This document shows, in pieces, positions 3,313 to 53,839 of a stretch of DNA of 64,000 nucleotides. The stretch is from Bacteroidales bacterium (GTDB taxonomy: Bacteria; Bacteroidota; Bacteroidia; Bacteroidales; WCHB1-69). Each line of letters opens with the position of its first letter. Position 1 is the first letter of the stretch. Location: assembly GCA_031272025.1 (NCBI GenBank), contig JAISUP010000008.1, positions 654 through 64,653 on the forward strand, given 5' to 3'. The notes beneath the pieces were generated by a model, which was given only the letters and a program-made list of their open reading frames with translations, had not been told where the DNA came from and did not search any database. The position numbers and the translations under genes were made by a program.

Positions 3313-6450
<3,138 letters not shown>

Positions 6451-16968: not shown

Positions 16969-19434
16969 TTAAGAATTTGACTCTTCGGGTAAAAGGTTGT
17001 TCGTGTTCTCGTCAGGAATCGTCGCGGCATTATCTTCCACATCAGGGATGCTCTCCTTTGCCTTATCGGCAATTTCCGTTTCAGACACGGGGTCTTCTTT
17101 TTTATCTTTATCTGACTTCGGGGGATTTTTCATTACCCTAATCCGGTATTCCAAATCTTTCATCTCGGCTTTGGCTGCCTCAATTTTTTTCAAGAATTCC
17201 GATTTCAAAAGGTCGGCGTTTTTGGAATGTACAAAAAAACCTAAATTATTCTCCCACAAACGAATATCTTCTTTCAACTTTTCTACTTTCGAAGTCAAGA
17301 AACGTTTTTCTTTGTCAAGAATTTTTCCCGCGTTAGGGTTGCTGAGTATGGTTTCTATTTTACTCTTAAAACGGTCGTGTCGCAAATCTTCGGGATTAAG
17401 TTTTAACTCGTTAAAACATTTATTGATGGCTTCTCTATAACTGTTATACAGTTTTTCTTTCACTTTTTTAGGTACAAATCCTATTTCAGTCCATTCCCGT
17501 TGAAATGCCTTTAATACTTCAAGATTTTCGGCTTTATTGGTTCCAAAGATATGTGTTTTAATGCGCTCTATCAGGTTTTCCTTTTTTTCAAGATTTTCGG
17601 TTTCCTGTTGTCGTGCATCGGAAAAATAATGGGATTTGGCTTCAAAGAACTTGTCGCAAGCCGTGCGAAAACGTTTCCACACGATTTGCGAATATTTATG
17701 GGGCACCGCACCGATCTCTTTCCATTCTTTTTGCAATTGCAGTAATTCTGTGGTGGCATCCTTCCAATCGGTTCTTATTGACACTGCTTCTGCGCGAATA
17801 GCAATATCAAGTTTGCGATTGTAATTCTGCATTTGCTCATCTTTTACCCCCTGAAAATAATCTTTTTTCTCTTGGAAGAACTTATCCAACGTTTCTCTAA
17901 AACGTTGCCAAATACCCTCATTCAGTTTCACGGGAGCAGGTCCTAAGGTCTTCCACATCTTGAGCAACTCTGTCAATTTATCACTAATTTCCTTGTAGTC
18001 GCGTATGCTTTGACTCTCCGCGCTCACCAGCTCCTCTGCCTGCTCACACAAAACCACCTTTGCATTGTAATTGTTTTGCTGCTCCGCGAATATCCTGTCA
18101 TAAAACTCTTTACGACGAATGTTGATCTGGTCTGAGGCGGTCTTAAAACGTTCCCATATCTCCTCTTTTTTGTCCTCAGGCACGGGTCCTATCTCTTTCC
18201 ATTCGTTATGTAATTCCTGCAACGCCTTAAAAGAATCACTCACCGACTCCAAAAGTAACAACGACTCTGCCTTTTCACACAACTTAATCTTTTGCTCTAA
18301 ATTCTTTTTCAAGTCAAGAGTACGCAACTCTTTGTTTATACGCAAAATATCAAAAAACTTCTCTACATAAAAATGATAATTTTGCCATAAATTTGCAGAT
18401 TCGTTTTGAGGCACAGCACCAATGGATTTCCATTGCTCCTGAAATTCCTTAAAATTATCATTCAGTACTTTGAGATTATTTTCTGTTTCTACTAACTTTT
18501 TCAGTCCTTCTATAATATCTTTCTTGGCTTCCAAATTGCGCTGTTTTTCGGCTTCCAAGGCTTCCATGAAACGATTTTTGTTGTCTTTAAACAACTGCAT
18601 GGCAGCGTTGAAACGATCTTCCCACGCCACGGGCGATGCCTCGAATTCTTCTTTATTGCCTCCTGATTGTAAAAAAGCCGCTAACTGTTCTTGCCTATGG
18701 CTTTTTAACACGTTCAATAGTTTGGATTTCAGTATCCCGACTCGATGTTTAATTTTATTATAGTCAGTATCGGCAACCACTTCGGAAAGCACGGCTACAG
18801 CCTCTTCTGCCGACAAAGCCTCATACTCGGCAGTAATTTTTTCTATGTCGTCCTCGTTTTTAGAGGTGTCATCAGTATCTTCTTCCCCATGCACGAGGTC
18901 GTGCTGTGCCGATTCGATGTCTTCCATCATGGTCTCTGCATTCGTTACCACGGGGTCTTCTTTTATCTCGCCGGCAACTTCTGATGTTATCTCCGAAGGC
19001 TGCTCGGTAATAACGGTATCGACAGTTGCTTCTACTACCGTTTCCGAAGGCTGCTCGGTAATAGCGGTATCGACTGTTGCTTCTACTACCGTCTCTGAAG
19101 GTTGCTCGGTGGTAGCGGTATCAACTGTTGCTTCTACTACCGTCTCCGAAGGCTGCTCGGTGGTAGCGGTATCAACTGTTGCTTCTACTGCCGTCTCCGA
19201 AGGCTGCTCGGTGGTAGCAGTATCAACTATTGCCTCTACTACCGTCTCCGAAGGTTCTTCGGTCGCGATTTCTTCTGCCGTTTCCGTAACACCGGAAGAT
19301 AGCACGACATCATTTTCGACATTCGCGGGGAGTTCTTCTGTCGCATGTCTTTGGGTTTCTTCTGAAACGCCGGAGTTCACCTCTTGAGAAATAATATTCT
19401 CATTTTCAGGGTGAATGAGTTCTTTTGAATCCAT
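16969..19434 (-). CDS. DUF349 repeat protein with an acidic N-terminal 17-aa tandem repeat
   Basis: Multiple ~75-aa repeats of the W..F....F pattern (e.g. EIWERFKTASDQI, GIWQRFRETLDKFF, IVWKRFRTACDKFF). The N-terminus carries TTEQPSETVVEATVDTA about 5-6 times. Confidence 0.75.
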   Translation of the reverse strand: MDSKELIHPENENIISQEVNSGVSEETQRHATEELPANVENDVVLSSGVTETAEEIATEEPSETVVEAIVDTATTEQPSETAVEATVDTATTEQPSETVVEATVDTATTEQPSETVVEATVDTAITEQPSETVVEATVDTVITEQPSEITSEVAGEIKEDPVVTNAETMMEDIESAQHDLVHGEEDTDDTSKNEDDIEKITAEYEALSAEEAVAVLSEVVADTDYNKIKHRVGILKSKLLNVLKSHRQEQLAAFLQSGGNKEEFEASPVAWEDRFNAAMQLFKDNKNRFMEALEAEKQRNLEAKKDIIEGLKKLVETENNLKVLNDNFKEFQEQWKSIGAVPQNESANLWQNYHFYVEKFFDILRINKELRTLDLKKNLEQKIKLCEKAESLLLLESVSDSFKALQELHNEWKEIGPVPEDKKEEIWERFKTASDQINIRRKEFYDRIFAEQQNNYNAKVVLCEQAEELVSAESQSIRDYKEISDKLTELLKMWKTLGPAPVKLNEGIWQRFRETLDKFFQEKKDYFQGVKDEQMQNYNRKLDIAIRAEAVSIRTDWKDATTELLQLQKEWKEIGAVPHKYSQIVWKRFRTACDKFFEAKSHYFSDARQQETENLEKKENLIERIKTHIFGTNKAENLEVLKAFQREWTEIGFVPKKVKEKLYNSYREAINKCFNELKLNPEDLRHDRFKSKIETILSNPNAGKILDKEKRFLTSKVEKLKEDIRLWENNLGFFVHSKNADLLKSEFLKKIEAAKAEMKDLEYRIRVMKNPPKSDKDKKEDPVSETEIADKAKESIPDVEDNAATIPDENTNNLLPEESNS
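18990..19262. repeat. 51-bp tandem repeat, about 5.3 copies, inside the DUF349 gene
   Basis: The TC(C/T)GAAGG(C/T)TGCTCGG anchor recurs at 18992, 19043, 19094, 19145, 19196 and 19247, an exact 51-nt period. Confidence 0.9.
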
Positions 19435-38906: not shown

Positions 38907-41900
38907 ATGAAAAAGTTCCTATTTGTTATCGCGTTATGGGCGATAGTTCCGGCGGCGGTTTTCGCGCAGTTGTTGGACTCTACGTGGATTTATTATGAGA
39001 ATTTTAACGGGACAACAAGCAAAATTACTACCAGAGTAAAAGAAACCGATGTAACAGGCACCGAAGGTCGCACATGGGCTATAACCCAGCCTGCATGGGC
39101 TGCCAATAAATGTATGCGTGCTTATCACACGAAAGCCAGTGGAGACTACCAAATCGCTTACACCAAGCCGATTCCTTACAACCGGTCTACCCCGTTCACC
39201 TATTTGCAGTTTGATCATATTTGTAAAGTATATGGACTATCCGACGGTGACAATAATCCTGCTTATATTTTGATTCAATTCTCGTCAGATACCAACGCGG
39301 TCAACGCGTGGTCTTCGGAAACGTACCTGATGGGAAATTCGGTATTGTCGTTTAATGCTACTTCCGAAACCTACTTTGGAAATGCCACCACGATATTACA
39401 AGCCACAGCATATTATCCCAGCCTGATCACGTATGCTTCATTTTCAGATAAATCTTACAGCACGTGGGTCAATGGTAGTCCCACTACGATACCTACGGCA
39501 AGTTGGTGGAAAAACGAAACCATTAGAATAGACAACGAGTTACAGCAAGCAGCAGCCAATATCACGTTTTTCAGGGTAGCATTTATTTACTCCGTTTATT
39601 CGCCTACCACTGGCAACAATAATAATATGGCAGGATGGTTCGTGGACAACATCCGGGTTATCAATTCCAATGCCGACATCAACCCGCCCAAGATTACTTT
39701 GCAAAGCCCGTATAAAGTCAATGATCTTAAGCAAGATAGTGTAAATAATTATTACGAGATAAAGGCGTTGATTTCAGATTGGGGCAATGATACCCTTAAC
39801 CTCAATAGCATTTCTTTTAAATACAAGAATGGAAAAAATGCCTCGTGGATTACCTTGCCGGCATACAATTCTACCACTAATCGGACAACAACAGGGCACA
39901 AGGAACATCAATACACCGGGTTTTGGCGTGTTCCCAAACATTGTATCGGGGACACGATTTATTACACGATTTCAGCCACAGACATGCATGGGAACACGGC
40001 TACATTAGATACTAATTTTCGCTTGGTATCCAATTTCACTAATAATGTAACGAGCAATGATGCGTGGATGCGCAAATTTCACGATTTTCCATTTGCCTTA
40101 ACCACGGGGCAGTCTCATCCTGTTAAGGTGTCATTTGCCAACCGTTCCCAAAATCTCATGACTTCTTTGCAAATAGGGTGGAGTCATAACGGGGTGCAGA
40201 AAACTACATACAATTGGACCGCGCCGCCCGCGACTGCCCTTTGCATGGAAGAGCGGGACACGGTAATCTTGGGCAATATCGTGCCTGTAAATGGGCATAA
40301 CTATATCAAAGCATGGGTAATAAAGCGAAACGGGGCAAATGACAACGGCACGTTGAATAACGACACGATTTATGCCGATGTCTATTCTTGCGACAGCGCG
40401 CTCAACGGTACTTATACCGTAGGAGATGCCACCGCAGATTTCCCCACGATAGCCGCCTTAAAAGACAAACTCGCGAATTGTGGTATCGGTGGCAATGTGG
40501 TCATCAATCTCAAACCGGGGACTTATAGCGACTTCACATTCGACCAAACCTATAACGGGCAGTCGCAAGCCCACAGGATTACTTTCCAAGCCGAAAACGG
40601 CAACCGGAATGCCGTTATTATACAAGATAATAGCACTTCAGGAACGGGGGCTATCGTGCTCAACGGGGTGGGTTTTTATACTTTCCACAATCTCACCATT
40701 AAGGGAAAAACAACAGGAACCAGTTCCAGAGGGGTAACCTTTTTAAACAAAGCAACCACATCTTCCGACATCGTGATGAATCAATATATTACCATCTCTA
40801 ATTGCAAAATAGAAGTCAATACTCCGGCAACTCCCGGGACCGCGGATACTTATACTGGCATTTATCGTCTATTGAGCACGGCAAATAAAATAGATCGGCA
40901 TATCACGATCAAAGATAATATCATTACCGGCGGCAACTATGGCATTAACTATAAAGGAACAGGAACCGCCACTTGTCGCAATCAATTAGATGAAGTAACC
41001 GGAAACGAGATTAGCGCGGCAACACTTGGTATCGTGCTTTTTTACGACACAGTGAGCACGGTGTCGCACAACACGATAACACAAATCGGCACCACGGCAG
41101 GTTTTAGAGGTATTGACTTGGAAAATATTTACTTATGTCAGCAAGTTTCGGGAAACACGGTAAAAAACACGTCCACCGCGATTAAGGGCATTTATTTAGC
41201 GACAGTAGCCGGCACATCTTCTCTCCCGCTTAAAGTGGCTAATAATGAAGTAAATATATGTGTATCAGGGAGTTCTCCTACAGGGATAGAATTAGCCAAT
41301 GCCAGTAATAACGTGCAATTGTTGCACAATTCGGTACGGTTGTATGCCACGGCGAACCTAACTTCGCGCAGTGCCGGAGTAAAAACTACCGGAACAGGAA
41401 ACAACCAAATTGTCAATCTGGTTTTAAAAAATAATATCTTAGTTAACGAAGTCAATGGTTCCACCGAAACGTATCATGGTTGTCCGATTGAACTCGCGAA
41501 TCTTACCACTACATCATCTTTAACAGCAGATTATAATTTATTTTACTCTCCCAACGGGGTTGTAGGTTATTATAAGGCAAACCGGTCTTCGTTAGAGCAA
41601 TGGTGTTGGTATGTCAACGCGGACATGCAAGGCGGTAGCGTGGAAGATCATGGCATGGTACGCGACCCCGGTTTTGCTCATACCGACAGTTGCTTAGAAC
41701 TTTCGATATACGATGGATTAGAGGTTCCTATGATACCCGGTATAACCGAGGATATTAGAGGTATACAGAGAAAAACGCTCACCTATTTTGGAGCCTATAC
41801 CATTGTTTTGCCGGATGTGAATATCGCCTTGATAGAATTAGTGTCGCCACTTCCTGCTTCATGCCCGCAAAATACTGCCAATATCACGTTGAAAATAAGA

Positions 41901-44900
41901 AATGTAGGAGGTGAATCCATTAATTTTAACAGCACGACATCCAAACTAACCATACAAGCCGACATTTCGGGTGGTTACGAATTTCACCAGCCCGTTACCG
42001 TTACTACCGGTTCTTTAAATCCATTGGAAACACGAGATGTAATCATCAAGACAAACGCGCCGTTAGGGGTAAACGATCCTATCTATTTTAAGTTTGTCGC
42101 GAGCATCGCGGGCGATACCATCCATAGAAACGACACGTTAGAGCATGTTTTCTTACAAGAAAATGTAATCTTAAATATTACGGCTAATCCCAACGAGTAT
42201 GACCAAACGTTTTCTGCCCCAACCCTCTCGGACCTTTCTCCTGCATGGAAATCCGAACAAATCAGTGGGCTGGGCAATTGGAAAATAGAAAGTGGCACGG
42301 GGAGCAATCCTACCCTTGACCCAACATACGGGGGGGGACGGCTTTTCTTAGATTTAAAGAATTCGTCTCTTACCACCACTAACACTACCTTAGTCCTTTC
42401 GCGCGCCATTATGCCTGCCTTTTCTTTGGTAGGTAGCGAAAATCCTACCTTAAACGTGTGGTTCGCGCACGACAAAGTAGGGACAACCTCTATCGTTTCC
42501 GGTATAGTAGTTAAAGTATCCATTGATGGAGGTAACACGTTTACAGCGTTGAGAGCCACGGAATTTACAAATCAACAAGACACCTTAATCAAACGGTATC
42601 ACGCCTCTTACACTACCGCCGCCTTCAAACGCTATATCTTTAACCTTAACCCGTATATAGGGCAACAATGCGTGATTATTGCTATTGACGGACGCGGACT
42701 CGGCGCGGTAGCCAGCAATAGCAACTTGAATATTGACAGAGTATATATCAATAATGTCCGTTCCGATGATTTTAGTCTTACTGATTTATATTCATGGAGT
42801 GAGGCACCCACTAAAGCCAACATGTCCATGAAAACCAAAGTGCGAGTGGTTAACGTTGGAGCAGAAGAAAAAACGCACGATATCACGCTGAAAGTATCGG
42901 GAGCAAACACGTATACAGAAACCGTGAGCAACGTAACGCTTCCTTTTCTTGGAGAAACGGTTATTAGTTTCAACGGGACACATTTGAATAACAACGGGAA
43001 CAATGTAGTAACCGTGTTCGTGTCTGGCGGCGACAACAACAAGCAAAACGACACGATACGAAAACCTTTGACTACCTATGATTATAGAGTAAATTTCGCG
43101 GACACTTCTACCAATCTCAAAGCCATTGGCGGTACGGCGGGAACCCGTCTCGCGAATCGTTATAACGTGGCAGAAGAAATCATTACCAATGCCGTACGTT
43201 TTTATCCCGTGAGTATCACAGATAATCCTGTGGGGAAAAAAGTATATGCTTTCGTGTCGGATCTCGCGGGTAACGTGATTGCCCAATCCGATACCCTTAC
43301 CCTCACCGCCGGGCATGTGAACACTTGGGTAGAGTTACCCATGAACCAATCCATATTGAGTAACGTGAGCGACTGTTTTTTCGCGGGAATACATCTCATG
43401 GATGCCGGTAATTACATCGGGGCACAAGTGGAGGCACCCATGCGCGATTCGGCATACTATACCTTGGGAACCAATAAACAATATACCCCGCAGGTTAATG
43501 GCAGGGCAATGATTGGGGCAGTAGTAGAAAAAGCCATATTGAACGACATGGCATTACTTTCGTATGTTTCACCGGTATCAAATTGCGACTTGGGACACGA
43601 GAATGTTACATTGAACTTGACTAACTACGGGTCGCAAACCATTCCCGCGGGCACAGTTTTTCACTTGTCGGTCAATAATTCGCACGTAGCACAACAAACC
43701 ATGACTGAGCCTTTGCCTCGTTTGGGGACGACTACATTCACGTTCTCCTACAAACCCGACTTTACCAACACGCAAGTTGGTGTAGACGACAACTATCAGT
43801 TAAAAGTATGGATAGAAAAGTTAACGGCAGACCGTGTTCCCGGCAACGACACGTTAGAATACGATTTTATTTCGCGGGGTAAAGCCAACATGCCCACGGT
43901 TAGTACGCCAATAAACGTACCATATAGTACTTCGGGGACGCTTACGGCAACCTTTCCTCCTGCCATACCTGCAAACAATGGAGTGCTTTCGTGGTACCAA
44001 AATGTGGGCGTGGAGCAATGGCAATTATTGGGACAAGGCAATACATTCCTAACCCCTGAAATTTTGTGGGATACAGCCTATTATGTCAATGTGGCTCAGG
44101 GAGGAATTGATGAAGCCATTTGTGGCACCGGCACCGTCTCAAACTCTTACATGTTTAACCTCATCAATAACTATTCCAAAGCCCGTGCCCTTTACCGTGC
44201 CATAGATTTAGGTAATAAAAATGGCTATGTTGCTAAAATCTTCGTTAACGTGGAATTACCTACTACACCGGTAGAAAACGTGGCTAATATAAAGATATAT
44301 CTTAAAAATACAGACCTGACCGCATTGACTGTACATGCTGTAAGTTCTTGGACAGATGAAATATCGGGTGCCTTATTAGTGTACGATGGTCCGTCTTCGA
44401 TATTTAACAAGGCGGGGTGGAACGAATTGGTATTGCCCGAACTCTTTAAATACACGGGACAAAGTTTGATGATTTTAACAGAGAGCACAGGAACCGTGGG
44501 AACGGCTACCAATATTTGTAAATTTATTTCTACCAATGTAACTAATACGCAGGATTATAGGACTGCCGCAGATGCTTTTAACTCGGCAACCTTTTCAACC
44601 AGCTCTGCCCGTATGAATGTTAAGTTTTCTTTTGCCGATATTTTGTGCCCCAGTGAAAAAGTGCCCATTCAAATTCTTATGACCGGAGCACCTAATTATG
44701 ACTTAGAAACGATGAAATTTTTACCCCCAACAGGTGCTTACGGCAATTACTGTACCTTAGAAAACGAGCATCCCGTCGTTATCTTAAAAAACCGGATGAA
44801 CTCGACTATTCCTGCTAATAAAGTGAAAATTACGGCGATATTTAATGGTACCCCCATTACCTATACCGTGGATAGACCTATTTTAGCGTCTTCTATCGAT

Positions 44901-47900
44901 ACCATTACATTCCCCAATACTTTCGATTTTAAAGCAACCACTGCCGATATTACATGGAATTACACTATTTTTACCGACCTGCTTGGAGAAAGCATTGTTT
45001 TTAGAAATGACGATACGATTAAGGGTAATTTTAAAGCGGAACAAACCGATTGGTTCCCCGATGAAATAGATTCTATCAATCACCCGTTTGCCACAGACTT
45101 TAAATTACAACTACGCGAAACTAACGGGAACTATAACGCGTCACGCAGATATTGGGTATACAATAACCCCGAAGGAACCGGTACCCCCTTAGCCAGCAAC
45201 GTGGCTTCGTTCACTACCCCCGTGCTATATGACGACATTACTTACTGGGTAAAATCTATCAACTTACAAACTGCCGCTCCCCGTTGTAGCACGAAAATGG
45301 TGAAATATACCATACATCTGCTCGCTCCTCAGCACGACTTGAAAGCCGTTTCGTACAATAGCCCGAATAACTACGAATGCGGTTTGACTAATGCCCATTT
45401 TAATGTAGATGTACAAAATACCCGTGTGGGCGTTATTCCCGCTAACACGTTCAAAATCAATGCAAATCTTACAGGGACAAGCACAAAGACAGGCTCTCAA
45501 ACCATTACCGTACCCATTGACAGTTTGGCTACTCACAAGGTAATTTTCAATACAGCAATAGACCTAACCTCACCCACACAAAACAATATATATAACTATG
45601 TCATCACGGTACAGCCTACGGGGAATATGCCCAACGACTATAAAAATAATGATACCCTAACGGGCGTGTTGAAAGTGCCTGCACTACCCAATGCTCCTAC
45701 TCCCATTTCCAGATCTGTAACCTTTGGAAATGAAGAACACATTGTTCCCTCCGAGTCATATCTTAATTATTTCTATTTTTATGATCAAAATGTTGGTGGT
45801 AATGTTATAGGCGAGGGAACTTCTTTTACCACTCCCCCCATTCGTACCAATACCACTTATTACTATTCGGGACGTATTCGGCAACCCGAATTTGCCGCAC
45901 AGCCCATTTGTGGGACAGGAACAACTCAGAATGTTTCTACTTTCAGTTTTACCACGGGAACCAATGCCACGAAATTGGGACAAGCAATACAATTGTATGA
46001 GGCAGCCGAATTAAACGATGGTTACGCGGGATATATAGATACCGTATCTATTCCTATCACGCATATCGCGGGTTCGCCTTTCCCCGTGAAGTTTTATATC
46101 CTTAACGACAGTACTACCTCCCTTGCTACAGCAGGAGCCTATCCTTGGGCAACGCTCGTGTCAAAGGCGACCTTAATTTTTGATGGAGAAACTGATTTTG
46201 GAAATACAGAGAACATTGACGGTATCGCGTGGTTTAAAATGCCCGTGCAAGGAGGTTTCTATTACACGGGACACAATATCTTATTGCTCATCGTACAAGA
46301 TTGTAATGGAGAATCTTGTTACACGATGGTAGGGAATAGCAGCAATACCACCCCGAATTTTAGATGCACGAGCAAAGCCAATTTCGCTGTGAACCGGCTC
46401 AATAGCACCACGGGAACAGAGAATTTTGCTAAGATTACAAACCGGATCAATACTCGATTCTCTTTCACGTACACCTGCCCATCTCCTCGTTCGCCCATCA
46501 CGCTAACCACGGTACAACCCGCTTGCGACCTGCAAGTAGCAAATATCACTGCCCCCATCACCCCGAATGATAATTACAGTACGAGCGAACAAGTAACGGT
46601 ATCTATCAAAAACTGGGGAACAACGGCGGCTTCCAATTTCCCGGTTACTTATTGTTTGGAAGGAAAAACACCGGTAACAGAGACTTACACGAATACGATA
46701 GCCGCGGGAGGAACGGGCATTTTTACCTTCGCTGCCCCCATAGACCTCACAGATATATATTTCCCCGAAAAATTGACGGTGAGCGTAAGATTAGCCTGTG
46801 ATAATATCACCAAAGACGATACCCTGATTTTGGAAGTCCAAAAACCGTCTCCTTGCAAATCGTATCCCTTAGAAGCCGATAAAGCAGATATTTCTAATGT
46901 TACCATTGCCGACCTTAATAATGGTCCGGGACTACCCTTGTTCAACTATAATCCTAACCCCAACAACGGACGTTATACAAACTATACGCAGACAGTGCCC
47001 CCTGTAAACGTGGTGCGGGGACAATCTCACGATTTTTCCATTACCAATTCCTTTACTACCACCGCAGGTTCGTCTATTTATCGCTATATTTACGTAGATT
47101 TAAACCGCGATAACACACTTGCTACCAATGAAAATCTATTTTCATCTACGGCACAAACCCCCACGGCAAACAATGGATACGCCACGATTAGCGGGTCAAT
47201 TTATATCCCGGATACGGCAGCCTTGGGGTTAACTCTAATGCGAATAATCACGGCAAGTACAACACAAACTTCACCCTGCGCGATTTATACCAGCGGGGAA
47301 ACCGAAGATTATGCCATGATTATTCACGAACCATATAACATAGACCCCGGTATTGTAGAAATCGTACACCCTTCAGGCGAGGTATGTCCTGATTCGTCAG
47401 GTAGAGTACGTGTGCGTATCAAAAACCACGGTACCTCTCCCATAACTTTCTCGGAAACCATGCCCATGACCTTAACAGCAACCCTGAGAACAGCCACAGA
47501 CACCGTTTCTTACACACAAGATTATACTTCGGGTACCATCTTGCCGGACGAAACAACCATGTTCGCGGTGGATCATGTCAACTGGCGTAAAGCAGGCACG
47601 TATGCCGTGAGCGTGAGTATGACATACCCCCCGGATGAATACGTGTATAATAATGTTAAATCCGGAACCGTGGCTACCGTGAAGGCGAACACGAAAGTCA
47701 TAGAAATGTCGGACAAGAAAGCCTACGAACGATTTGACTACGAAAAACAATTGTATTCAGGGGAAGAAATTGATGAATTTTTACTTGATACTGCCTTGTG
47801 GACAGCAACGACAACGCCAACCACTGTTACCAACTTTAAGTGGTCGGTATTTATGAGTAAAACCGACAACGCGCCTAACGCGGGACCATTGCACGACCAC

Positions 47901-48953
47901 ACTACCGGTGTACCCTCCAGGGGGATGCCCGAAGGGTGGTTCGCGGCAGTATCGGCACCAAGTAATGCATCGACAACCGCGGTGGCATATCTCACCACTG
48001 CATGTCTAAACCTGCATTATGAAAACGGATACCCCAAAAAAGTATCCTATTGGGAACATATCTATGCCAAAGATACTACCGCGAGCGTGCGCGTAAGAGT
48101 AGAGGTTGGCTCCGGCAATAACTTTATCCCCATAGACGAATTTACCGGTCCTACCCAATCGTATGATACCTCTGCATGGCTCAATCGTTATGTCATGCTC
48201 AACGAATTTGACGAAATTGCAAAGGTGCGTTTCATCGCCGACAAGCATAGCAAAATGATAGATCCCGCCCTCGACGACATTCGTTTTGGTTACGGCTACC
48301 CCGACTTAGGTATAGATTCCATTCTCTTCCCCAAATCATATAAAAACGTATCAAACAGAGATAAAGATTGTATTAGTTACAACGATACCATATATCCCGT
48401 GATACTGATCCATAACTATGGAACAGAAGCAGTATATGAATATGATATACAGGCAAGTGCATCCGTTGGAGATTATGATAACACGATAACCGAACACGTG
48501 AGTCAAGTTCTCATGCCGGGAGATACCATGTATTATACCCTGAAAACAGCGTTAGTGGCTCCATCAAAATACAGTCATTGTGAAATCGTGGTTCGGGTAT
48601 ATACCGACTTTGATGAAAACTCGAAAAATGACGAACAATGGATTATTTCCTGCATTGATGTAGGGGTAGGCGTAGAAGATATTCTCGTGAGAAAAGGGTA
48701 CTCGTTAGGACAAAATATACCTAATCCTGCCAATGGACTTACCCAAATACCATTCTCGCTGCCGGAACCTGGACAGGTTACTTTCCAAATACATACCATA
48801 GAAGGACAAACCTTGTACAACGAAACACAATTTTATAACGGGGGCGAACAAAGATGGAACTATAACACTGCCTCCTTACCATCGGGCATTTATCTCTATA
48901 CCATGCATTGTAAAGACGTGATACTTACCCGAAAAATGGTCGTGGAACGTTAG
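38907..48953 (+). CDS. giant (3,348 aa) mosaic secreted/surface protein, T9SS cargo
   Basis: An uninterrupted 10,047-nt ORF with signal peptide MKKFLFVIALWAIVPAAVFAQ. It carries a beta-helix-like region, repeated CARDB-like modules, a GEVED domain, a MAM-like domain and a type-A T9SS CTD (sub-features below). Confidence 0.85.
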   Translation: MKKFLFVIALWAIVPAAVFAQLLDSTWIYYENFNGTTSKITTRVKETDVTGTEGRTWAITQPAWAANKCMRAYHTKASGDYQIAYTKPIPYNRSTPFTYLQFDHICKVYGLSDGDNNPAYILIQFSSDTNAVNAWSSETYLMGNSVLSFNATSETYFGNATTILQATAYYPSLITYASFSDKSYSTWVNGSPTTIPTASWWKNETIRIDNELQQAAANITFFRVAFIYSVYSPTTGNNNNMAGWFVDNIRVINSNADINPPKITLQSPYKVNDLKQDSVNNYYEIKALISDWGNDTLNLNSISFKYKNGKNASWITLPAYNSTTNRTTTGHKEHQYTGFWRVPKHCIGDTIYYTISATDMHGNTATLDTNFRLVSNFTNNVTSNDAWMRKFHDFPFALTTGQSHPVKVSFANRSQNLMTSLQIGWSHNGVQKTTYNWTAPPATALCMEERDTVILGNIVPVNGHNYIKAWVIKRNGANDNGTLNNDTIYADVYSCDSALNGTYTVGDATADFPTIAALKDKLANCGIGGNVVINLKPGTYSDFTFDQTYNGQSQAHRITFQAENGNRNAVIIQDNSTSGTGAIVLNGVGFYTFHNLTIKGKTTGTSSRGVTFLNKATTSSDIVMNQYITISNCKIEVNTPATPGTADTYTGIYRLLSTANKIDRHITIKDNIITGGNYGINYKGTGTATCRNQLDEVTGNEISAATLGIVLFYDTVSTVSHNTITQIGTTAGFRGIDLENIYLCQQVSGNTVKNTSTAIKGIYLATVAGTSSLPLKVANNEVNICVSGSSPTGIELANASNNVQLLHNSVRLYATANLTSRSAGVKTTGTGNNQIVNLVLKNNILVNEVNGSTETYHGCPIELANLTTTSSLTADYNLFYSPNGVVGYYKANRSSLEQWCWYVNADMQGGSVEDHGMVRDPGFAHTDSCLELSIYDGLEVPMIPGITEDIRGIQRKTLTYFGAYTIVLPDVNIALIELVSPLPASCPQNTANITLKIRNVGGESINFNSTTSKLTIQADISGGYEFHQPVTVTTGSLNPLETRDVIIKTNAPLGVNDPIYFKFVASIAGDTIHRNDTLEHVFLQENVILNITANPNEYDQTFSAPTLSDLSPAWKSEQISGLGNWKIESGTGSNPTLDPTYGGGRLFLDLKNSSLTTTNTTLVLSRAIMPAFSLVGSENPTLNVWFAHDKVGTTSIVSGIVVKVSIDGGNTFTALRATEFTNQQDTLIKRYHASYTTAAFKRYIFNLNPYIGQQCVIIAIDGRGLGAVASNSNLNIDRVYINNVRSDDFSLTDLYSWSEAPTKANMSMKTKVRVVNVGAEEKTHDITLKVSGANTYTETVSNVTLPFLGETVISFNGTHLNNNGNNVVTVFVSGGDNNKQNDTIRKPLTTYDYRVNFADTSTNLKAIGGTAGTRLANRYNVAEEIITNAVRFYPVSITDNPVGKKVYAFVSDLAGNVIAQSDTLTLTAGHVNTWVELPMNQSILSNVSDCFFAGIHLMDAGNYIGAQVEAPMRDSAYYTLGTNKQYTPQVNGRAMIGAVVEKAILNDMALLSYVSPVSNCDLGHENVTLNLTNYGSQTIPAGTVFHLSVNNSHVAQQTMTEPLPRLGTTTFTFSYKPDFTNTQVGVDDNYQLKVWIEKLTADRVPGNDTLEYDFISRGKANMPTVSTPINVPYSTSGTLTATFPPAIPANNGVLSWYQNVGVEQWQLLGQGNTFLTPEILWDTAYYVNVAQGGIDEAICGTGTVSNSYMFNLINNYSKARALYRAIDLGNKNGYVAKIFVNVELPTTPVENVANIKIYLKNTDLTALTVHAVSSWTDEISGALLVYDGPSSIFNKAGWNELVLPELFKYTGQSLMILTESTGTVGTATNICKFISTNVTNTQDYRTAADAFNSATFSTSSARMNVKFSFADILCPSEKVPIQILMTGAPNYDLETMKFLPPTGAYGNYCTLENEHPVVILKNRMNSTIPANKVKITAIFNGTPITYTVDRPILASSIDTITFPNTFDFKATTADITWNYTIFTDLLGESIVFRNDDTIKGNFKAEQTDWFPDEIDSINHPFATDFKLQLRETNGNYNASRRYWVYNNPEGTGTPLASNVASFTTPVLYDDITYWVKSINLQTAAPRCSTKMVKYTIHLLAPQHDLKAVSYNSPNNYECGLTNAHFNVDVQNTRVGVIPANTFKINANLTGTSTKTGSQTITVPIDSLATHKVIFNTAIDLTSPTQNNIYNYVITVQPTGNMPNDYKNNDTLTGVLKVPALPNAPTPISRSVTFGNEEHIVPSESYLNYFYFYDQNVGGNVIGEGTSFTTPPIRTNTTYYYSGRIRQPEFAAQPICGTGTTQNVSTFSFTTGTNATKLGQAIQLYEAAELNDGYAGYIDTVSIPITHIAGSPFPVKFYILNDSTTSLATAGAYPWATLVSKATLIFDGETDFGNTENIDGIAWFKMPVQGGFYYTGHNILLLIVQDCNGESCYTMVGNSSNTTPNFRCTSKANFAVNRLNSTTGTENFAKITNRINTRFSFTYTCPSPRSPITLTTVQPACDLQVANITAPITPNDNYSTSEQVTVSIKNWGTTAASNFPVTYCLEGKTPVTETYTNTIAAGGTGIFTFAAPIDLTDIYFPEKLTVSVRLACDNITKDDTLILEVQKPSPCKSYPLEADKADISNVTIADLNNGPGLPLFNYNPNPNNGRYTNYTQTVPPVNVVRGQSHDFSITNSFTTTAGSSIYRYIYVDLNRDNTLATNENLFSSTAQTPTANNGYATISGSIYIPDTAALGLTLMRIITASTTQTSPCAIYTSGETEDYAMIIHEPYNIDPGIVEIVHPSGEVCPDSSGRVRVRIKNHGTSPITFSETMPMTLTATLRTATDTVSYTQDYTSGTILPDETTMFAVDHVNWRKAGTYAVSVSMTYPPDEYVYNNVKSGTVATVKANTKVIEMSDKKAYERFDYEKQLYSGEEIDEFLLDTALWTATTTPTTVTNFKWSVFMSKTDNAPNAGPLHDHTTGVPSRGMPEGWFAAVSAPSNASTTAVAYLTTACLNLHYENGYPKKVSYWEHIYAKDTTASVRVRVEVGSGNNFIPIDEFTGPTQSYDTSAWLNRYVMLNEFDEIAKVRFIADKHSKMIDPALDDIRFGYGYPDLGIDSILFPKSYKNVSNRDKDCISYNDTIYPVILIHNYGTEAVYEYDIQASASVGDYDNTITEHVSQVLMPGDTMYYTLKTALVAPSKYSHCEIVVRVYTDFDENSKNDEQWIISCIDVGVGVEDILVRKGYSLGQNIPNPANGLTQIPFSLPEPGQVTFQIHTIEGQTLYNETQFYNGGEQRWNYNTASLPSGIYLYTMHCKDVILTRKMVVER
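40401..41600 (+). other. right-handed parallel beta-helix-like region of the giant protein (about aa 499-898)
   Basis: The entry motif LNGTYTVGDATADFPTIAALKDKLANCGIGGNVVINLKPGTYSD is followed by about 20-25-residue repeats rich in N/G/I/T (ITIKDNIITGGNYGINYKG, NNEVNI, LKNNILVN). Confidence 0.5.
44115..44680 (+). other. paralogous Cys-bounded module, copy 1 (about aa 1737-1925)
   Basis: ICGTGTVSNS...ALYRAIDL...IKIYLKNT...LLVYDG...GWNEL...FKYTGQSLMIL...RMNVKFSF..CPSEKVPI. The same ordered motif set appears in copy 2. Confidence 0.5.
45903..46510 (+). other. paralogous Cys-bounded module, copy 2 (about aa 2333-2535)
   Basis: ICGTGTTQNV...IQLYEAAEL...VKFYILND...TLIFDG...AWFKM...FYYTGHNILLL...RINTRFSF..CPSPRSPI. 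Confidence 0.5.
46854..47330 (+). other. GEVED-type domain of the giant protein
   Basis: It ends with SPCAIYTSGETEDYAMII (the GE[VT]EDY signature, G at 47295). Upstream, YVDLNRDNTL corresponds to the WIDWNxDG position of the family. Confidence 0.55.
47835..48296 (+). other. MAM-like domain of the giant protein
   Basis: FKWSV...GPLHDHTTG...GWFAAVSAPSN..TAVAYLTTACLNL...VRFIADK...ALDDIRFGYG follows the usual MAM motif order (DHT.G, then a large-block L.SP-like motif, then a terminal DDI.F). Confidence 0.5.
48672..48950 (+). other. type-A T9SS C-terminal sorting domain of the giant protein
   Basis: GQNIPNPANGLTQIPFSLPEPGQVTFQIHTIEGQTLY...LPSGIYLYTMHCKDVILTRKMVVER, the same architecture as the GH18 tail at 8741-8971. 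Confidence 0.8.
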
Positions 48954-48959
48954 TGGAAA

Positions 48960-49667
48960 ATGGAATACTATTATTGCCCCGATTTAACAACGGCTATGGT
49001 ATGGCTCTCGGAAGAGGAGAGTAAACATTGTGCTATGGTAAAGCATCGCCGCGTTGGAGATACCCTCATGCTCATAGATGGTCGCGGGACTCGTGTCACA
49101 GCAATGCTAACCGACATTAATCGTCATCGAGTGGGGTTGCAGGTGCTAAGCAAAGAATCCCAATGGGGAAAGCGTTCGCGTGCGTTTCATTTAGCAATCG
49201 CACCCACCAAACAACGAGAACGAATGGAATGGATGCTCGAAAAAACCGTGGAAATAGGTATAGAAAAAATTACTTTCTTAATTTGTGAACGCTCAGAGCG
49301 ACAACAAATAGACCTGTCGCGCATGTCGCGCATCGCTATTGCTGCCATCAAACAATCGGGAACCGCATTTTTGCCACAAATAACATGTCTCCCTTTCGAT
49401 GATTTCTTAAAAACAATACCCGAAAATACCCCCCTTGTAGAAAAATATATTGCATGGTGCGAAACCCCTGAAGATACTCCACTATTACAACATATCCCCA
49501 TGACCGCGGTTGAAATGACCGTACTCGTGGGACCGGAAGGAGATTTTACCTACATAGAAGTAGAAAAAGCAAAAAATGCCGGATTCAAGGAAATTTCGTT
49601 GGGCAAAAAACGATTACGTACAGAAACCGCGGGGCTATTTGCTTGTTGCCTCGCCGCTAAAGAATAA
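48960..49667 (+). CDS. rsmE: 16S rRNA (uracil1498-N3)-methyltransferase
   Basis: H..VKRxRVGD-like N-terminus (HCAMVKHRRVGD), a SPOUT C-terminus with LVGPEGDFT and the LG...LRTETA motif. Confidence 0.85.
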   Translation: MEYYYCPDLTTAMVWLSEEESKHCAMVKHRRVGDTLMLIDGRGTRVTAMLTDINRHRVGLQVLSKESQWGKRSRAFHLAIAPTKQRERMEWMLEKTVEIGIEKITFLICERSERQQIDLSRMSRIAIAAIKQSGTAFLPQITCLPFDDFLKTIPENTPLVEKYIAWCETPEDTPLLQHIPMTAVEMTVLVGPEGDFTYIEVEKAKNAGFKEISLGKKRLRTETAGLFACCLAAKE

Positions 49668-49701
49668 CTGCAACATACTTGTTAACAAATCAATTTGTGA
49701 A

Positions 49702-49781
49702 GAGGCTGTCTCAAAAGTAGAAAAACTGCGTCATTCCGGCGAAAGCCGGAATCCCCTTATAATCGTTAAATATTAATATAC
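49702..49781 (+). repeat. 80-bp REP/MITE-like repeat, copy A (head GAGGCTGTCTCAAAAG + GNRA-capped hairpin)
   Basis: 76/80 identical to the reverse complement of 52755-52834. It contains the hairpin ATTCCGGC-GAAA-GCCGGAAT. It generates the spurious track ORF 49576-49776. Confidence 0.85.
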
Positions 49782-49879
49782 ATTCATATCCATAGAAAGA
49801 CTGGTTGAGCAACAAATCTAACATAACCCGCTCAATAAAATCGCATATTGACTTGTTTGTCAATAACTTGCTCTCTTTG

Positions 49880-50972
49880 CTAAACAGTGCCCCCGTATGA
49901 CATTAAGTATGCTTTGATAAAGTCATCAAGGTCGCCATCCATGACCGCTGCGACGTTAGAAGTCTCGTAACGAGTACGTAAATCTTTGACCATTTTGTAA
50001 GGATGCATCACGTAACTCCGTATTTGCGATCCCCATTCAATGCGTTTTTTGTTACTTTCTATCTCGTTTATTTTTTCCCGTTTTTTTTCTTGTTCTAATT
50101 GATAGAGCCTTGATTTGAGCATTTGCATGGCTTTTTCTCTATTTTGCAGTTGTGAACGGGTTTCCTGACATTCGACTACGATGCCTGAAGGTAAATGATG
50201 TAGTCGTACGGCGGTTTCTACTTTATTGACATTTTGACCACCCGGACCGCTCGACCGGTAAGTATCCCACTCGATGTCTGCCGGGTTGACCACGATTTCT
50301 ATGTCATCGTCCACGATAGGGTAGGCAAAAACCGAAGCAAAAGAGGTATGACGCTTGTTGGCAGAATCGAAAGGCGACAATCGCACGAGACGATGTACTC
50401 CATTCTCGCTCTTAAGATTACCATAACCATAATAACCTGAGAGTTCAATAGTCATTGACTTAATGCCGACAACGTCTCCTTCTTGACGGTCAAGAATTTT
50501 TATCGCGAAACCATGTTTCTCGCCCCAGCGAATATACATACGTGAAAGCATATCTGCCCAATCGCAACTTTCGGTACCCCCGGCCCCGGAATTGATTGTC
50601 AGGATTACCCCCAACCGGTCTTCTTCATGACGCATCATGTTCCGAAATTCTAATTTTTCTACCGACTTTAACGCCGTTTCGTAATGCATATCTAACTCAA
50701 TTTCTGATGCATCGCCCGATAAGAAAAAATCGTGCATCACCAAAAAATCGTCTGCAAGCCCACGGGTATTTTCATACGCATCTACCCACGACTTCACGAA
50801 ACTAATGTCTTTCAACAACTTCTCAGCCATTTTCGGGTCGTTCCAAAAATCAGGTTCCCGAGTTATTTTCTCTTTTTCTGATATTTCCTGCTTTTTTCCA
50901 TCCACGTCAAAGGCACCTCCTTAGCTCATCGAGCCGGTAAGCAAGATCCTTGATTTGTTCGTTATTGACCAT
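49880..50972 (-). CDS. prfB: peptide chain release factor 2, requiring a programmed +1 frameshift
   Basis: ORF0 [21 protein letters not shown] stops at TGA. The +1 frame continues DVDGKKQEI... for 341 codons and contains SPF (LSPFDS) and GGQ ([11 protein letters not shown]). Confidence 0.9.
50906..50921 (-). promoter_or_regulatory. RF2 autoregulatory +1 frameshift site (AGGAGG-TGC-CTT TGA C)
   Basis: The minus strand reads CTA AGG AGG TGC CTT TGA C. An internal SD-like AGGAGG sits 3 nt before the CTT-TGA-C slippery/stop context, the same layout as I recall for E. coli prfB. Confidence 0.9.
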
Positions 50973-51019
50973 GATATGATAATTTTACTATTTATTAAAC
51001 GTGTTAAAATACGTGCCCG

Positions 51020-51027
51020 CGAAGATA
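51020..51027 (-). promoter_or_regulatory. -7 promoter box, TTCGCG variant (TAtcTTCGCG)
   Basis: 47 nt upstream of the prfB ATG at 50972. Confidence 0.45.
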
Positions 51028-51038
51028 CTATAAAATAA

Positions 51039-52502
51039 TCAATTCTGCTTTTCTTCTTCCCAAACTTTACAATGTTTGATAGATAGGCTCCCCGGATTGA
51101 ATTTTGGGGCTTTTATGCCTCTTTTTGTTTGTTGTTCGTAGTCGGCAAAAGTTTTCAGTGCCGTTTTTTGCAACAAGAGTAGTGCCACAATATTGAACCA
51201 TGCCATCAATGCAACCCCGATATCTGCAATATCCCAAGCGGTTTGCATGGAGGAGATGGAGGTGAAATACATGCATATTAAAAATAGCAAACGAATAGAT
51301 AGTAGTGCTGCTTTTTGTTTTTTTTCTTTTCTAAAAAGAAAATAGATGTTGCTTTCTGCTTGAAAATAATAACTCATTAAAGTAGTAAAGGCAAACAAAG
51401 CCAAGACAATGGCTACGAAAGGTGCCCCAAAGCCGGGAAAATGTAAATCTAATCCCATTTGTGTATATATAGGACCATGTTCAACGATTGTAGATGGAAG
51501 ATTGCCCCCGCTGAGAATAACTTGTCCTTTCGCGTCGAACACATCATACATACCGGTAGATAAAATGATGAAGGCAGTAGCAGAACAAACGAGAAGGGTA
51601 TCGGTATACACGGAAAAGGCTTGAACTAATCCTTGTTTTGAAGGATGTGAAACATCAGCCGCTGCCGCCGCGTGAACAGCAGAGCCTTGTCCTGCTTCGT
51701 TTGAATATATGCCGCGCTTTACCCCCATGGCAATCGCCGCTCCTGCTATTCCACTCAAAGCAGGCTCCAAGCCGAAAGCAGATCTGATTATCAGGGTAAA
51801 AACTTCAGGTATCTCTGTATAATGTATGCCTACAACAATAAGAGCCACAATGATATATAATAATGCCATGAATGGTGTGATAAACTCTGCAATTTTAGCA
51901 ATACGTTTTATTCCTCCGAAAATAATAATAGCCAATAAAACTAAAATCGCGGCTCCCGTTATTTTTAAATCTACCCCAAAAGCATGTTGAAAGGCATAAC
52001 CCACATTGTTGGCTTGGACACCGGGGCATAGAATGCCTTCTGCCACAATAGTAATGAGCGCAAATACCATGGCAAAGTATTTGTTTTGCAAACCGTGAAG
52101 AATATAAAAAGCAGGACCTCCACGAAAATGTCCGTCAATTTGTTCTTTGTAAATCTGTCCTAAACTTGCTTCCATATAAGCGGTACTTGCTCCTAAAAAA
52201 GCCGTTAACCACATCCAGAAAACAGCACCGGGACCTCCTAAGGCTATTGCTGTGGCAACCCCCGCGATATTTCCGGTGCCTACTCTTCCTGCTAACGCTA
52301 ACATGAAGGCTTGAAAAGAAGATATGCCCACTTTTGATGATTTACTCACAAAGAGCATTTTTGCCATGCTTTTTAAATAGCGAATTTGTAAAAATCGAGT
52401 ACGAATCGAAAAATATAAGCCTACACATAAGCATAGTAAGACTAATCCCATCCCCATAAGATGCGAACTTAGAAAGGTAATGAACTCAGAGAAAGTATTC
52501 AT
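51039..52502 (-). CDS. alanine/glycine:cation (sodium:alanine) symporter family protein
   Basis: 487 aa with about 11 hydrophobic helices. GGPGAVFWMW and SNEAGQGS motifs are typical of the AGCS family. Confidence 0.85.
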   Translation of the reverse strand: MNTFSEFITFLSSHLMGMGLVLLCLCVGLYFSIRTRFLQIRYLKSMAKMLFVSKSSKVGISSFQAFMLALAGRVGTGNIAGVATAIALGGPGAVFWMWLTAFLGASTAYMEASLGQIYKEQIDGHFRGGPAFYILHGLQNKYFAMVFALITIVAEGILCPGVQANNVGYAFQHAFGVDLKITGAAILVLLAIIIFGGIKRIAKIAEFITPFMALLYIIVALIVVGIHYTEIPEVFTLIIRSAFGLEPALSGIAGAAIAMGVKRGIYSNEAGQGSAVHAAAAADVSHPSKQGLVQAFSVYTDTLLVCSATAFIILSTGMYDVFDAKGQVILSGGNLPSTIVEHGPIYTQMGLDLHFPGFGAPFVAIVLALFAFTTLMSYYFQAESNIYFLFRKEKKQKAALLSIRLLFLICMYFTSISSMQTAWDIADIGVALMAWFNIVALLLLQKTALKTFADYEQQTKRGIKAPKFNPGSLSIKHCKVWEEEKQN

Positions 52503-52547
52503 AATCCATACATAAAATAATAATTATCTTGTTGTTTAAATTTTGTA

Positions 52548-52555
52548 CAAAGATA
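52548..52555 (-). promoter_or_regulatory. -7 promoter box TAtcTTTG
   Basis: 45 nt upstream of the symporter ATG at 52502 and outside the repeat element. Confidence 0.5.
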
Positions 52556-52566
52556 ACAATTTTTTG

Positions 52567-52886
52567 GTTAATATTTTTTTGAGGTGCTATATCCTTTTGA
52601 ATTTCATAGTTCCGCATGGTCGGTTGTAAAAAATTGCCATGTTGATTTGAAAGTTCTTTTTACAAAATTTCCAGTTGTTCTGAGGCTGTCTCAAAAGCTC
52701 GTCATGGCGGCCTTGATCCGCCATCTCCCGAAGACCGCCAAATGCTAAATAATTGTATATTAATTTTTAACGATTAGAAGGGGATTCCGGCTTTCGCCGG
52801 AATGATGCAGCTTTTCTACTTTTGAGACAGCCTCTTAATAAAGCGTTTTCCCCGCGGGAAAAATAGCACCTCAAAAAAATATTAAC
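52567..52886. mobile_element. 320-bp MITE-like element bounded by perfect 24-bp terminal inverted repeats
   Basis: GTTAATATTTTTTTGAGGTGCTAT at 52567-52590 has its exact reverse complement at 52863-52886. There is no coding capacity and no obvious target-site duplication. Confidence 0.4.
52682..52834. repeat. 153-bp palindromic REP-like pair (copy C, plus strand, 52682-52764; copy B, minus strand, 52755-52834) nested in the MITE-like element
   Basis: The 16-bp termini are perfect: GAGGCTGTCTCAAAAG at 52682-52697 and CTTTTGAGACAGCCTC at 52819-52834. The two units are joined tail to tail at TATATTAAT. Each unit carries a hairpin of different sequence. Confidence 0.8.
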
Positions 52887-52928
52887 GAAAAGAAACTTAT
52901 CAAACATGATGCCAAATCTGCCGAAATT

Positions 52929-53066
52929 ATACGACCGTTTTTTATAGACATCTTCTTTTTCTAATAATTTTTCTTTTAATGTTTTTCACGGTGCAAAAAT
53001 ACAACTTTTAACCGAATAAGCACACATTTTTTTTTTTCATTTTCTGTCTATAACAAACGGTCGTAT
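52929..53066. promoter_or_regulatory. candidate invertible promoter: a 22-bp inverted repeat flanking a 94-bp segment with a central promoter box
   Basis: ATACGACCGTTTTTTATAGACA (52929-52950) against TGTCTATAACAAACGGTCGTAT (53045-53066) gives 21/22 complementary positions. The TATTTTTGCAC box sits exactly mid-segment. Confidence 0.3.
52994..53001 (-). promoter_or_regulatory. orphan -7 promoter box TAttTTTG(CA) pointing away from the methyltransferase gene
   Basis: The reverse complement of GTGCAAAAATA. No annotated gene starts within 400 nt downstream on the minus strand. Confidence 0.4.
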
Positions 53067-53116
53067 TTTCACGACAATTACGATAATATTTTAAAAATTA
53101 AAAAATAAATGCAACC

Positions 53117-53839
53117 ATGTTAAGTAGAAAAGTTACCAATGCCATCCGGTTTGTAATGGACGAATTACTGCCGCCAATAATCAGAGATAACAAATATTTT
53201 ATGTATCCGTTCTTCTTTTTTTGGTTCAAGGGTAAAAATACAAAAGCATGGATGAATATAAAATCTGTCTTTTATAAACTATCTGATAAAGAATATGTTT
53301 CATTTTATGATCTTTATGAAAATGGCGCGTACATATCTAAACGCGTAACTGATTTGAGCGAGCGCACCATTTCATTTATTATTAACAGTTTGAATGAATA
53401 TGAGGTATTGCACCATGAATATAGTATACTTGACGTTGGTTGTGGAAAAGGATATTTGCTCAAACGATTGCATGATGCTGGCTTTCATAATTTAACAGGT
53501 GTTGATTTAGCAACGTCATCTCTATATAATGAAATAGAAATAATAAACGGTAATGTAGAAGATTTACCCTTTGATAATAAATCTTTTGATGTTGTTCTTT
53601 GTAGCCATACATTAGAACATGTTTTAAATTTAACACAAGCCATATCTGAATTAAAGAGAGTTGCAAGAAAGATATTAATCATTACGGTGCCGAGACAGCG
53701 TTACTACCATTATACATTAGATGGGCATATAAATTTTTTCCCCGAAAAGTCTTATCTACTAAAAGCACTTGATATAACGGATGAAAAAACAACTTGTAAA
53801 AATATCAGCGGGGATTGGACTGTAATAATTGAACTCTAA
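53117..53839 (+). CDS. class I SAM-dependent methyltransferase (Methyltransf_11-like)
   Basis: Motif I ILDVGCGKGYLLKRL, a post-I acidic residue (GVDL), and FDVVLCSHTLEHV. The gene is visibly more AT-rich than its neighbours. Confidence 0.75.
   Translation: MLSRKVTNAIRFVMDELLPPIIRDNKYFMYPFFFFWFKGKNTKAWMNIKSVFYKLSDKEYVSFYDLYENGAYISKRVTDLSERTISFIINSLNEYEVLHHEYSILDVGCGKGYLLKRLHDAGFHNLTGVDLATSSLYNEIEIINGNVEDLPFDNKSFDVVLCSHTLEHVLNLTQAISELKRVARKILIITVPRQRYYHYTLDGHINFFPEKSYLLKALDITDEKTTCKNISGDWTVIIEL

Follow-up and report, generated by a model that had tools for sequence, protein, structure and literature searches.

Short palindromic repeats that cluster between genes were reportedly described in enterobacteria by Gilson et al. 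as REP clusters and BIMEs, and the REPIN doublets of Pseudomonas are said to have been defined by Bertels and Rainey in 2011. A 320-bp feature in the genome of an uncultured member of the Bacteroidales shares several properties with these elements: short, GC-rich, extragenic hairpins that are dispersed, occur as inverted doublets and form mosaics with other motifs, compensatory variation within the hairpin stems, and a frequent location at the ends of genes, where the hairpins can act as barriers. It differs from them in that the copy number in the DNA searched was apparently low, that no RAYT was seen and that the host belongs to the Bacteroidales. Moreover, the hairpin units have a 16-nt non-palindromic head, and the outer 31-nt arm, which is also non-palindromic, has no described counterpart in a BIME.

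A second group of related systems consists of miniature transposable elements. The Correia elements of Neisseria are small intergenic MITE-like repeats. In Porphyromonas gingivalis, BrickBuilt and MITE464/PgRS are MITEs derived from IS5 (PMC4596501). The window (the whole 64-kb stretch of DNA that was analyzed, 64,000 nt in length) has in common with the Porphyromonas MITEs and the Neisseria Correia/ATR elements a small, AT-rich, non-coding, intergenic element with terminal inverted repeats, nesting with other repeats, a potential to carry or create promoters, and many one-ended fragments. However, no convincing target-site duplication, second full copy or parent insertion sequence was found for the 320-bp feature, and the two halves of its inner repeat pair are homologous to one another, an arrangement that is REPIN-like and atypical of MITEs derived from the ends of an insertion sequence.

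The invertases of the Bacteroidales often act at a distance. The invertible promoters, or invertons, of this order (PMC11892184, PMC11602134) resemble the locus in having perfect inverted repeats of ~20-25 bp that enclose a few hundred bp upstream of a gene with a TAnnTTTG box, and in that the recombinase is not necessarily encoded nearby. In contrast, the interior of the 320-bp feature is dominated not by a dedicated promoter but by dispersed hairpin repeats, its arm occurs singly in another genome, no orientation polymorphism was present among the contigs searched, and no known class of inverted repeat motif was matched. To our knowledge, intergenic REP/MITE-like repeats are poorly catalogued in termite-gut Bacteroidales. 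Such repeats break assemblies and can mimic invertons or MITEs by the geometry of their inverted repeats alone. If the interpretation proposed below is right, the present analysis documents a small REP/MITE-like repeat family, and a 31-nt motif associated with it, in uncultured Bacteroidales of the termite gut.

Organization of the divergent spacer

The window derives from a 64.7-kb contig of an uncultured gut Bacteroidales MAG, and its proteins were 100% identical to the GenBank entries MDR1757496.1 and MDR1757497.1. The same organism is represented in IMG/JGI sample 3300005723, where it was assembled from 53251 onward only. An apparent 70-nt indel between locus L024 and the window was rejected as a polymorphism, since it corresponded to a scaffold gap of Ns. 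The GC content is ~42% for the whole window and 35% near the 320-bp element, which lies inside a 614-bp spacer between a symporter gene and a divergently transcribed methyltransferase gene (Table 1). The promoters of the host are of the Bacteroidetes type, with a TAnnTTTG -7 box; the box was enriched 4-fold in the intergenic DNA of the window and was located 9-75 nt upstream of many first genes. The -7 box of the symporter is beyond the perfect 24-nt arm, yet within the 39-nt extended repeat described below. Judging from the position of this box, the left arm would cover the symporter promoter from about -20 to -45. The box is downstream of the element, which is therefore outside the symporter leader.

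Table 1. Positions of the repeats, promoter boxes and genes in and around the divergent spacer, in window coordinates.
Feature	Position	Strand	Description
Solo copy of unit B	49700-49782	+	Between convergent rsmE-like and prfB genes; 95% identity, 83 nt
AGCS Na/alanine symporter	51039-52502	-	Pfam scan/ORF context
Symporter -7 box TATCTTTG	52548-52555	-	Bacteroidetes-type; 46 nt upstream of ATG; 11 nt outside left arm
Left arm	52567-52590	+	Perfect 24 nt; conserved motif ~31 nt (52561-52591); imperfect similarity to 52552
Left spacer	52591-52674	.	Unique 84 nt with local hairpins
Unit A	52675-52752	+	Head GAGGCTGTCTCAAAAG 52682-52697, GTCAT, hairpin ATGGCGG/CCGCCAT 52704-52724
Unit B	52754-52836	-	Head 52819-52834; hairpin ATTCCGGC/GCCGGAAT 52784-52803
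-7-like box TACTTTTG in unit B	52817-52824	+	TAnnTTTG; faces methyltransferase
Small GC-rich hairpin UUUUCCC-GCG-GGGAAAA	52846-52862	-	Terminator-like for leftward transcription, tail CGCTTTATTA
Right arm	52863-52886	-	Perfect 24 nt; imperfect similarity to 52901
Segment B	52929-53066	.	22-nt arms (21/22) 52929-52950 / 53045-53066; 94-nt interior; absent from the original prediction
Segment B -7 box TATTTTTG	52994-53001	-	Exact centre of 94-nt interior; now faces left
Class I SAM methyltransferase	53117-53839	+	Pfam scan/ORF context

The original prediction, made from the sequence of the window, described a perfect 24-bp terminal inverted repeat, and this was confirmed: the two copies of GTTAATATTTTTTTGAGGTGCTAT were identical (24/24) in opposite orientations and enclosed 272 bp. 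No other match was found in the 64 kb, even when 3 mismatches were allowed, and the arm was matched in none of 100 dinucleotide-preserving shuffles. The repeat could be extended outward to 29/30 and then to 34/39 (52552-52590 / 52863-52901). The 5 mismatches of the 39-nt repeat were confined to its outer 15 nt, the inner 24 being free of them (Fisher p = 0.005), with 2 mismatches between the right and left arms in the 7 nt just outside the perfect core. The restriction of the mismatches to the outer 15 nt indicates that a core of 24-31 nt is the conserved unit and that the repeat is not a simple local duplication. The best conserved stretch of the outer arms is internal, not terminal. The arm sequence lacks dyad symmetry and, since it is non-palindromic, it is not a REP. 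Its interpretation as a sigma-54, sigma-70, dif, hix-type or IHF consensus was dropped on informal inspection by eye because of the poor fit. Allowing for indels, a degenerate form of the motif can be written as TTTTKGGTTAAWATTTTTTTGAGGTGCTAT. A profile search of the window and all fetched loci with nhmmer revealed no further diverged arms or units.

The 153-bp pair of REP-like units that had been proposed within the arms was also present, with GAGGCTGTCTCAAAAG at both ends (16/16, or 20/23 when extended) around 121 bp. A third copy of GAGGCTGTCTCAAAAG, which the original prediction did not mention, was found at 49702-49717, so that there were 3 matches in the window compared with an expected 0.03. 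Units A and B aligned over their full length, with the same 16-nt head, GTCAT, hairpin and C-rich tail, and the differences between the two hairpin stems (Table 1) were compensatory. The stem is 7 bp in unit A and 8 bp, with a GAAA loop, in unit B. As the solo copy at 49700-49782 demonstrates, the inner units are members of a dispersed family, which is represented by three hairpin units at two intergenic loci of the window. Judged by these alignments, the inner pair is two diverged members of a family of dispersed REP-like hairpins, ~80 nt in length. The TAnnTTTG box in unit B, TACTTTTG, is outward-facing, 62 nt in from the right arm, and recurs in the solo copy. Read as the minus strand, this copy consists of a hairpin with a T-rich tail, a possible terminator for prfB, and was not among the calls of a terminator scan of 49500-53300.

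The Porphyromonas MITEs use IS5-family ends, for which the published sequences are GAGACTGTTGCA (ISPg4/MITE464) and GAGACCTTTGCAAAA (ISNme1) (PMC4596501). Compared with the ISPg4/MITE464 end in that table, the inner head, GAGGCTGTCTCA, matched at 9/12 positions, and the likeness of the 16-nt head to IS5-family ends is recorded as a lead only. The head sequence was otherwise matched in the literature by unrelated primer or adapter strings only.

The 84-nt left spacer had no similar sequence in the rest of the window or in the retrieved loci. The 9-bp inverted repeat that had been placed in this spacer is located at 52624-52632 / 52657-52665, and the 7-bp GC-rich hairpin was found next to the right arm as described. 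The element is non-coding, as predicted, with ORFs of no more than 54 aa. A 46-aa ORF that includes the right arm shared words with no protein cluster, and when it was used as a protein query, as a means of catching copies mis-called as genes, there were zero matches.

Relatives of the arms and hairpin units in other genomes

The exact 24-mer of the arm was scanned against one genome per species, 185,579 species in all, and gave a single match, locus L009, on contig JAISKN010000272 of a termite-gut MAG labelled Prevotellaceae bacterium Hs463_bin52. Positions 1029-1059 of this 7.6-kb contig are identical, 31/31, to 52561-52591 of the window (TTTTTGGTTAATATTTTTTTGAGGTGCTATA). No second arm was found in the contig at <=3 mismatches; a degenerate candidate that matched at 18/31 positions was rejected because many T-rich positions of the contig score equally well. 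The L009 arm abuts, at a distance of 0-30 nt, an inverted hairpin doublet, GTCATTCCCGCG(C/A)AGGCGGGAATCCC, that can be aligned with units A and B. Both hairpin units of the doublet have 8-bp stems and carry GTCATTCC(C/G)GCG...GGAATCCC, and the order is the same as in the window: the arm, a head-first unit and an inverted unit. On the other side of the L009 arm is a TAnnTTTG box followed by a histidine-kinase gene. Their joint occurrence in two genomes points to a link between the arm and the hairpin family, which could be parts of one composite module, or insertion next to the arm could be preferred.

The L009 contig is rich in other repeats, located at 1916-1940, 2279-2364, 4685-5018, 5391-5560, 5847-5934 and 6897-6921. 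These include 8-nt periodic runs of ATCAACAA within a UPF0004/radical-SAM gene, a GC-rich palindrome in two identical copies (GTAGGGGCAGGGCGCGCCCTGCCCC) and a number of AT-rich palindromic blocks, mostly in spacers.

A scan of the JGI metagenome contigs with a 20-mer of the arm identified 6 loci, where, by a rough estimate, ~4 hits are expected by chance for a T-rich 20-mer in this collection. Three of the loci were clearly chance matches, one in the context of a Shine-Dalgarno sequence and ATG (L003), one inside a gene (L005) and one in a GC-rich, sigma-70-like context (L006), and a fourth, at a duplicated contig end (L004), was probably so. The other two, L002 and L001, are possible relatives of the arm but, given the number of hits expected, may also be chance. 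L002 carries GGTTAA[A]TATTTTTTTGAGGTGCTATAA, with a 1-nt indel relative to the arm. In both loci the motif is solo and points at a -7 box and a gene, the product of which is an SDR protein for L002 and an amino-acid permease for L001. Beside the possible arm relative of L001, at 1750-2060, is a cluster of CATAGGGCGATGCCCCATGCTATTGCTATCAGGCTTTCAGCC units that belong to another palindromic repeat family.

The arm gave 0 hits in IMG/VR and only chance-level matches in plasmids and phages. When IMG/VR was scanned with the 16-nt head, there were 14 hits, most of them in unrelated coding-like sequence or terminator hairpins. One IMG/VR contig (L015) has a 99-bp element at 994-1092 bounded by inverted copies of the 16-mer GAGGCTGTCTCAAAAG.

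Interpretation of the 320-bp feature

The preferred, though tentative, interpretation of the feature is a BIME/MITE-like mosaic of selfish, dispersed intergenic repeats that serves as a passive hairpin barrier, rather than one gene-like or transposon-like unit. Its GC-rich hairpins and the extragenic, dispersed copies that form inverted doublets combined with another motif are those of REP/BIME elements, while the terminal inverted repeats, small size and absence of coding capacity are those of a MITE. In this mosaic, two inverted copies of a ~31-nt motif bracket the 84-nt spacer, the REP-like doublet and the small hairpin. The repeats would be selfish, presumably mobile DNA that spread through recombination, or through an enzyme encoded elsewhere and acting in trans, and that accreted within an unusually long divergent spacer. 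The nested hairpin, on DNA or RNA, would block transcription across the spacer, and one source of the blocked transcription could be the leftward-facing promoter of segment B. Leftward transcripts from segment B would first encounter the terminator-like hairpin, 52862-52846, and then the nested hairpins. The symporter promoter, for which the left arm would provide the -20 to -45 region, may thus be shielded from these transcripts.

The original prediction had offered, as one of three possibilities, a MITE into which another small element had inserted. The nested part of that proposal is supported in a broad sense by the dispersed family, the 95% identical solo copy and the relatives elsewhere, but the outer MITE was not borne out. 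A second full copy was found in none of the collections searched (the 64-kb window, JGI metagenome contigs, GTDB species genomes, IMG/VR, plasmids and phages), where scans by exact match would miss diverged copies; the only other arm is solo and the candidate target-site duplications are within chance. The counts for the 64 kb are very low: a single composite, three hairpin units and two arms. The composite is single-copy and without relatives in the DNA searched, while its parts have relatives. It had been noted that no target-site duplication could be found, and the best candidates, CAAA (52552-52900) and TTTCC (52673-52846), which require offset boundaries and emerged from ~280-400 boundary combinations, are indeed at chance level.

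Five homologues of the symporter with 72-75% identity, on contigs that are not syntenic with the window, have upstream regions of 42-141 nt with neither an arm nor a unit. These short, bare upstream regions fit the accretion of extra DNA at the window locus, although none is a true empty site and no orthologous locus was found. If the mosaic interpretation is right, the locus has little import beyond annotation. There are two observations, however, that could be read differently: 1) a perfect 24-bp inverted repeat beside a Bacteroidales promoter also has the look of an inverton and 2) the left arm, L009, L002 and L001 have the same orientation toward a -7 box, which could mean that the motif functions as a promoter-distal site and is not selfish DNA.

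With regard to the first, a site-specific recombinase encoded elsewhere might flip 52591-52862 between the 24-bp arms. The flip would redirect the unit B box TACTTTTG to the symporter, or reverse a polar terminator cassette, and would make a double switch with segment B. A second invertible segment had been among the possibilities originally put forward, and its geometry is as described for Bacteroidales invertons (PMC11892184): an inverted repeat pair around a segment within the ~100-700-bp range next to a gene start, in this case perfect 24-bp arms and a 272-bp interior just upstream of the -7 box. The single outward-facing TAnnTTTG box inside the right arm and the identity of the inner 24 nt, while the outer flank has diverged, are also consistent with inversion.

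The neighboring segment B resembles a textbook invertible promoter. With its -7 box at the centre of the interior, it looks like a candidate classical Bacteroidales invertible promoter that now points away from the methyltransferase, a gene for which no box is present on the + strand up to 290 nt from the start. If so, invertases probably act in this genome. Segment B fits the inverton family far better than the 320-bp element does.

The recombinase and the alternative orientation that inversion of the 320-bp element would call for were not found. Pfam scans of the 43 ORFs of the 64-kb window revealed no recombinase, transposase or RAYT, and there was neither a Y1/HUH transposase nor an IS element; a cognate invertase was therefore lacking within 64 kb, though one could be encoded at a distance. 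No contig with the opposite orientation, and no paired arms, were present in the JGI metagenome contigs, the GTDB genomes or IMG/VR, and the sole certain copy of the arm in another genome, that in L009, is solo. The arm has no dyad symmetry and could be matched to no published inverted repeat motif or known invertase motif class, substrings of the arm being absent from the searched supplementary tables of an inverton catalogue. Furthermore, the interior is nearly symmetric in function, with hairpins on both strands, the promoter-like box is intrinsic to the dispersed repeat unit B, and a separate box, beyond the segment, serves the symporter. Inversion of the 320-bp element is accordingly considered rather unlikely. 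If it were true, the spacer would have a compact pair of adjacent switches over a transporter and a methyltransferase, and dispersed repeats would have been co-opted as inverton cargo.

A broader proposal, which we regard as doubtful, is that the spacer is a two-switch region, in which segment B is an invertible promoter, the 320-bp element is a second, independently invertible cassette and the arms are recombinase sites shared in termite-gut Bacteroidales, or else that the 31-nt arm is the operator of a new regulon. Flipping of the cassette would switch a repeat-borne promoter and a polar terminator from one of the divergent genes to the other.

With regard to the second observation, the arms might be two copies of a promoter-distal site, operator or UP-like, one for each of the divergent genes, so that the inverted repeat would be a by-product and the REP-like units filler that ends at the edge of the functional promoter region. 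Several features of the motif point in this direction, 1) the left arm, L009, L002 (with the 1-nt indel) and L001 all read ATAGCACCTC... toward a downstream TAnnTTTG box and gene, 2) the spacings from CACCTC to the box, 31, 52, 54 and 33 nt, fall into two classes about two helical turns apart, 3) the similarity breaks off sharply at its distal end (GCTAT|), and REP-like repeats start there in the window, L009 and L001, 4) two of the downstream genes encode amino-acid transporters and 5) a convincing target-site duplication is absent. However, a binding site would not usually be 31/31 identical at non-orthologous loci of two genomes, no -7 box is found at a similar distance from the right arm, and the motif is found at no other promoter of the window and upstream of none of the five symporter homologues. 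Moreover, L001 and L002 are among 6 hits of which ~4 are expected by chance, and the agreement in orientation of four cases has a p of about 0.1. A binding site is for these reasons regarded as quite improbable.

The last of the original suggestions, a large structured RNA or DNA locus, was upheld only as far as the strength of the fold. The 320 bp were predicted to fold at -126 kcal/mol (z = -9.8) on one strand and at -119 kcal/mol (z = -8.7) on the other, values that are nearly equal and follow trivially from the nesting of the DNA repeats. In Rfam searches, the window contained only two tRNAs at gathering thresholds, and 52300-53300 gave only chance-level hits (E > 3) at permissive thresholds. 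That the 320 bp encode a discrete structured non-coding RNA or a cis-acting leader is thus very improbable, in spite of the strong fold and of the compensatory changes by which the hairpins of units A and B and L009 keep their pairing, as the stability is explained by the repeats, Rfam gave no match and no full-length homologues were found for covariation.

Other features of the window

Several observations concern parts of the window away from the spacer. The prfB gene has, at about 50905-50975 on the minus strand, the classical site of RF2 programmed +1 frameshifting, AGGAGGTGCCTTTGAC, with an SD-like AGGAGG upstream, and the apparent start of its short first frame is an ATG near 50972. Two long-range inverted repeats, a 22-nt repeat (91%) with arms 2.7 kb apart (5188-5209 / 7898-7919) and a perfect 16-nt repeat with arms 1.6 kb apart (13586-13601 / 15229-15244), have their arms in or beside ORFs and are probably due to chance. 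A tandem array with a 51-nt period occupies 18939-19314, where six 121-nt matches overlap and share 60-91% identity with the reference copy, and lies within the gene of a DUF349-repeat protein (16969-19434, minus strand). Finally, 38907-48953 is an ORF of 3348 aa whose product, a giant secreted or surface protein, carries GEVED and Ig-like domains together with a C-terminal T9SS sorting domain.
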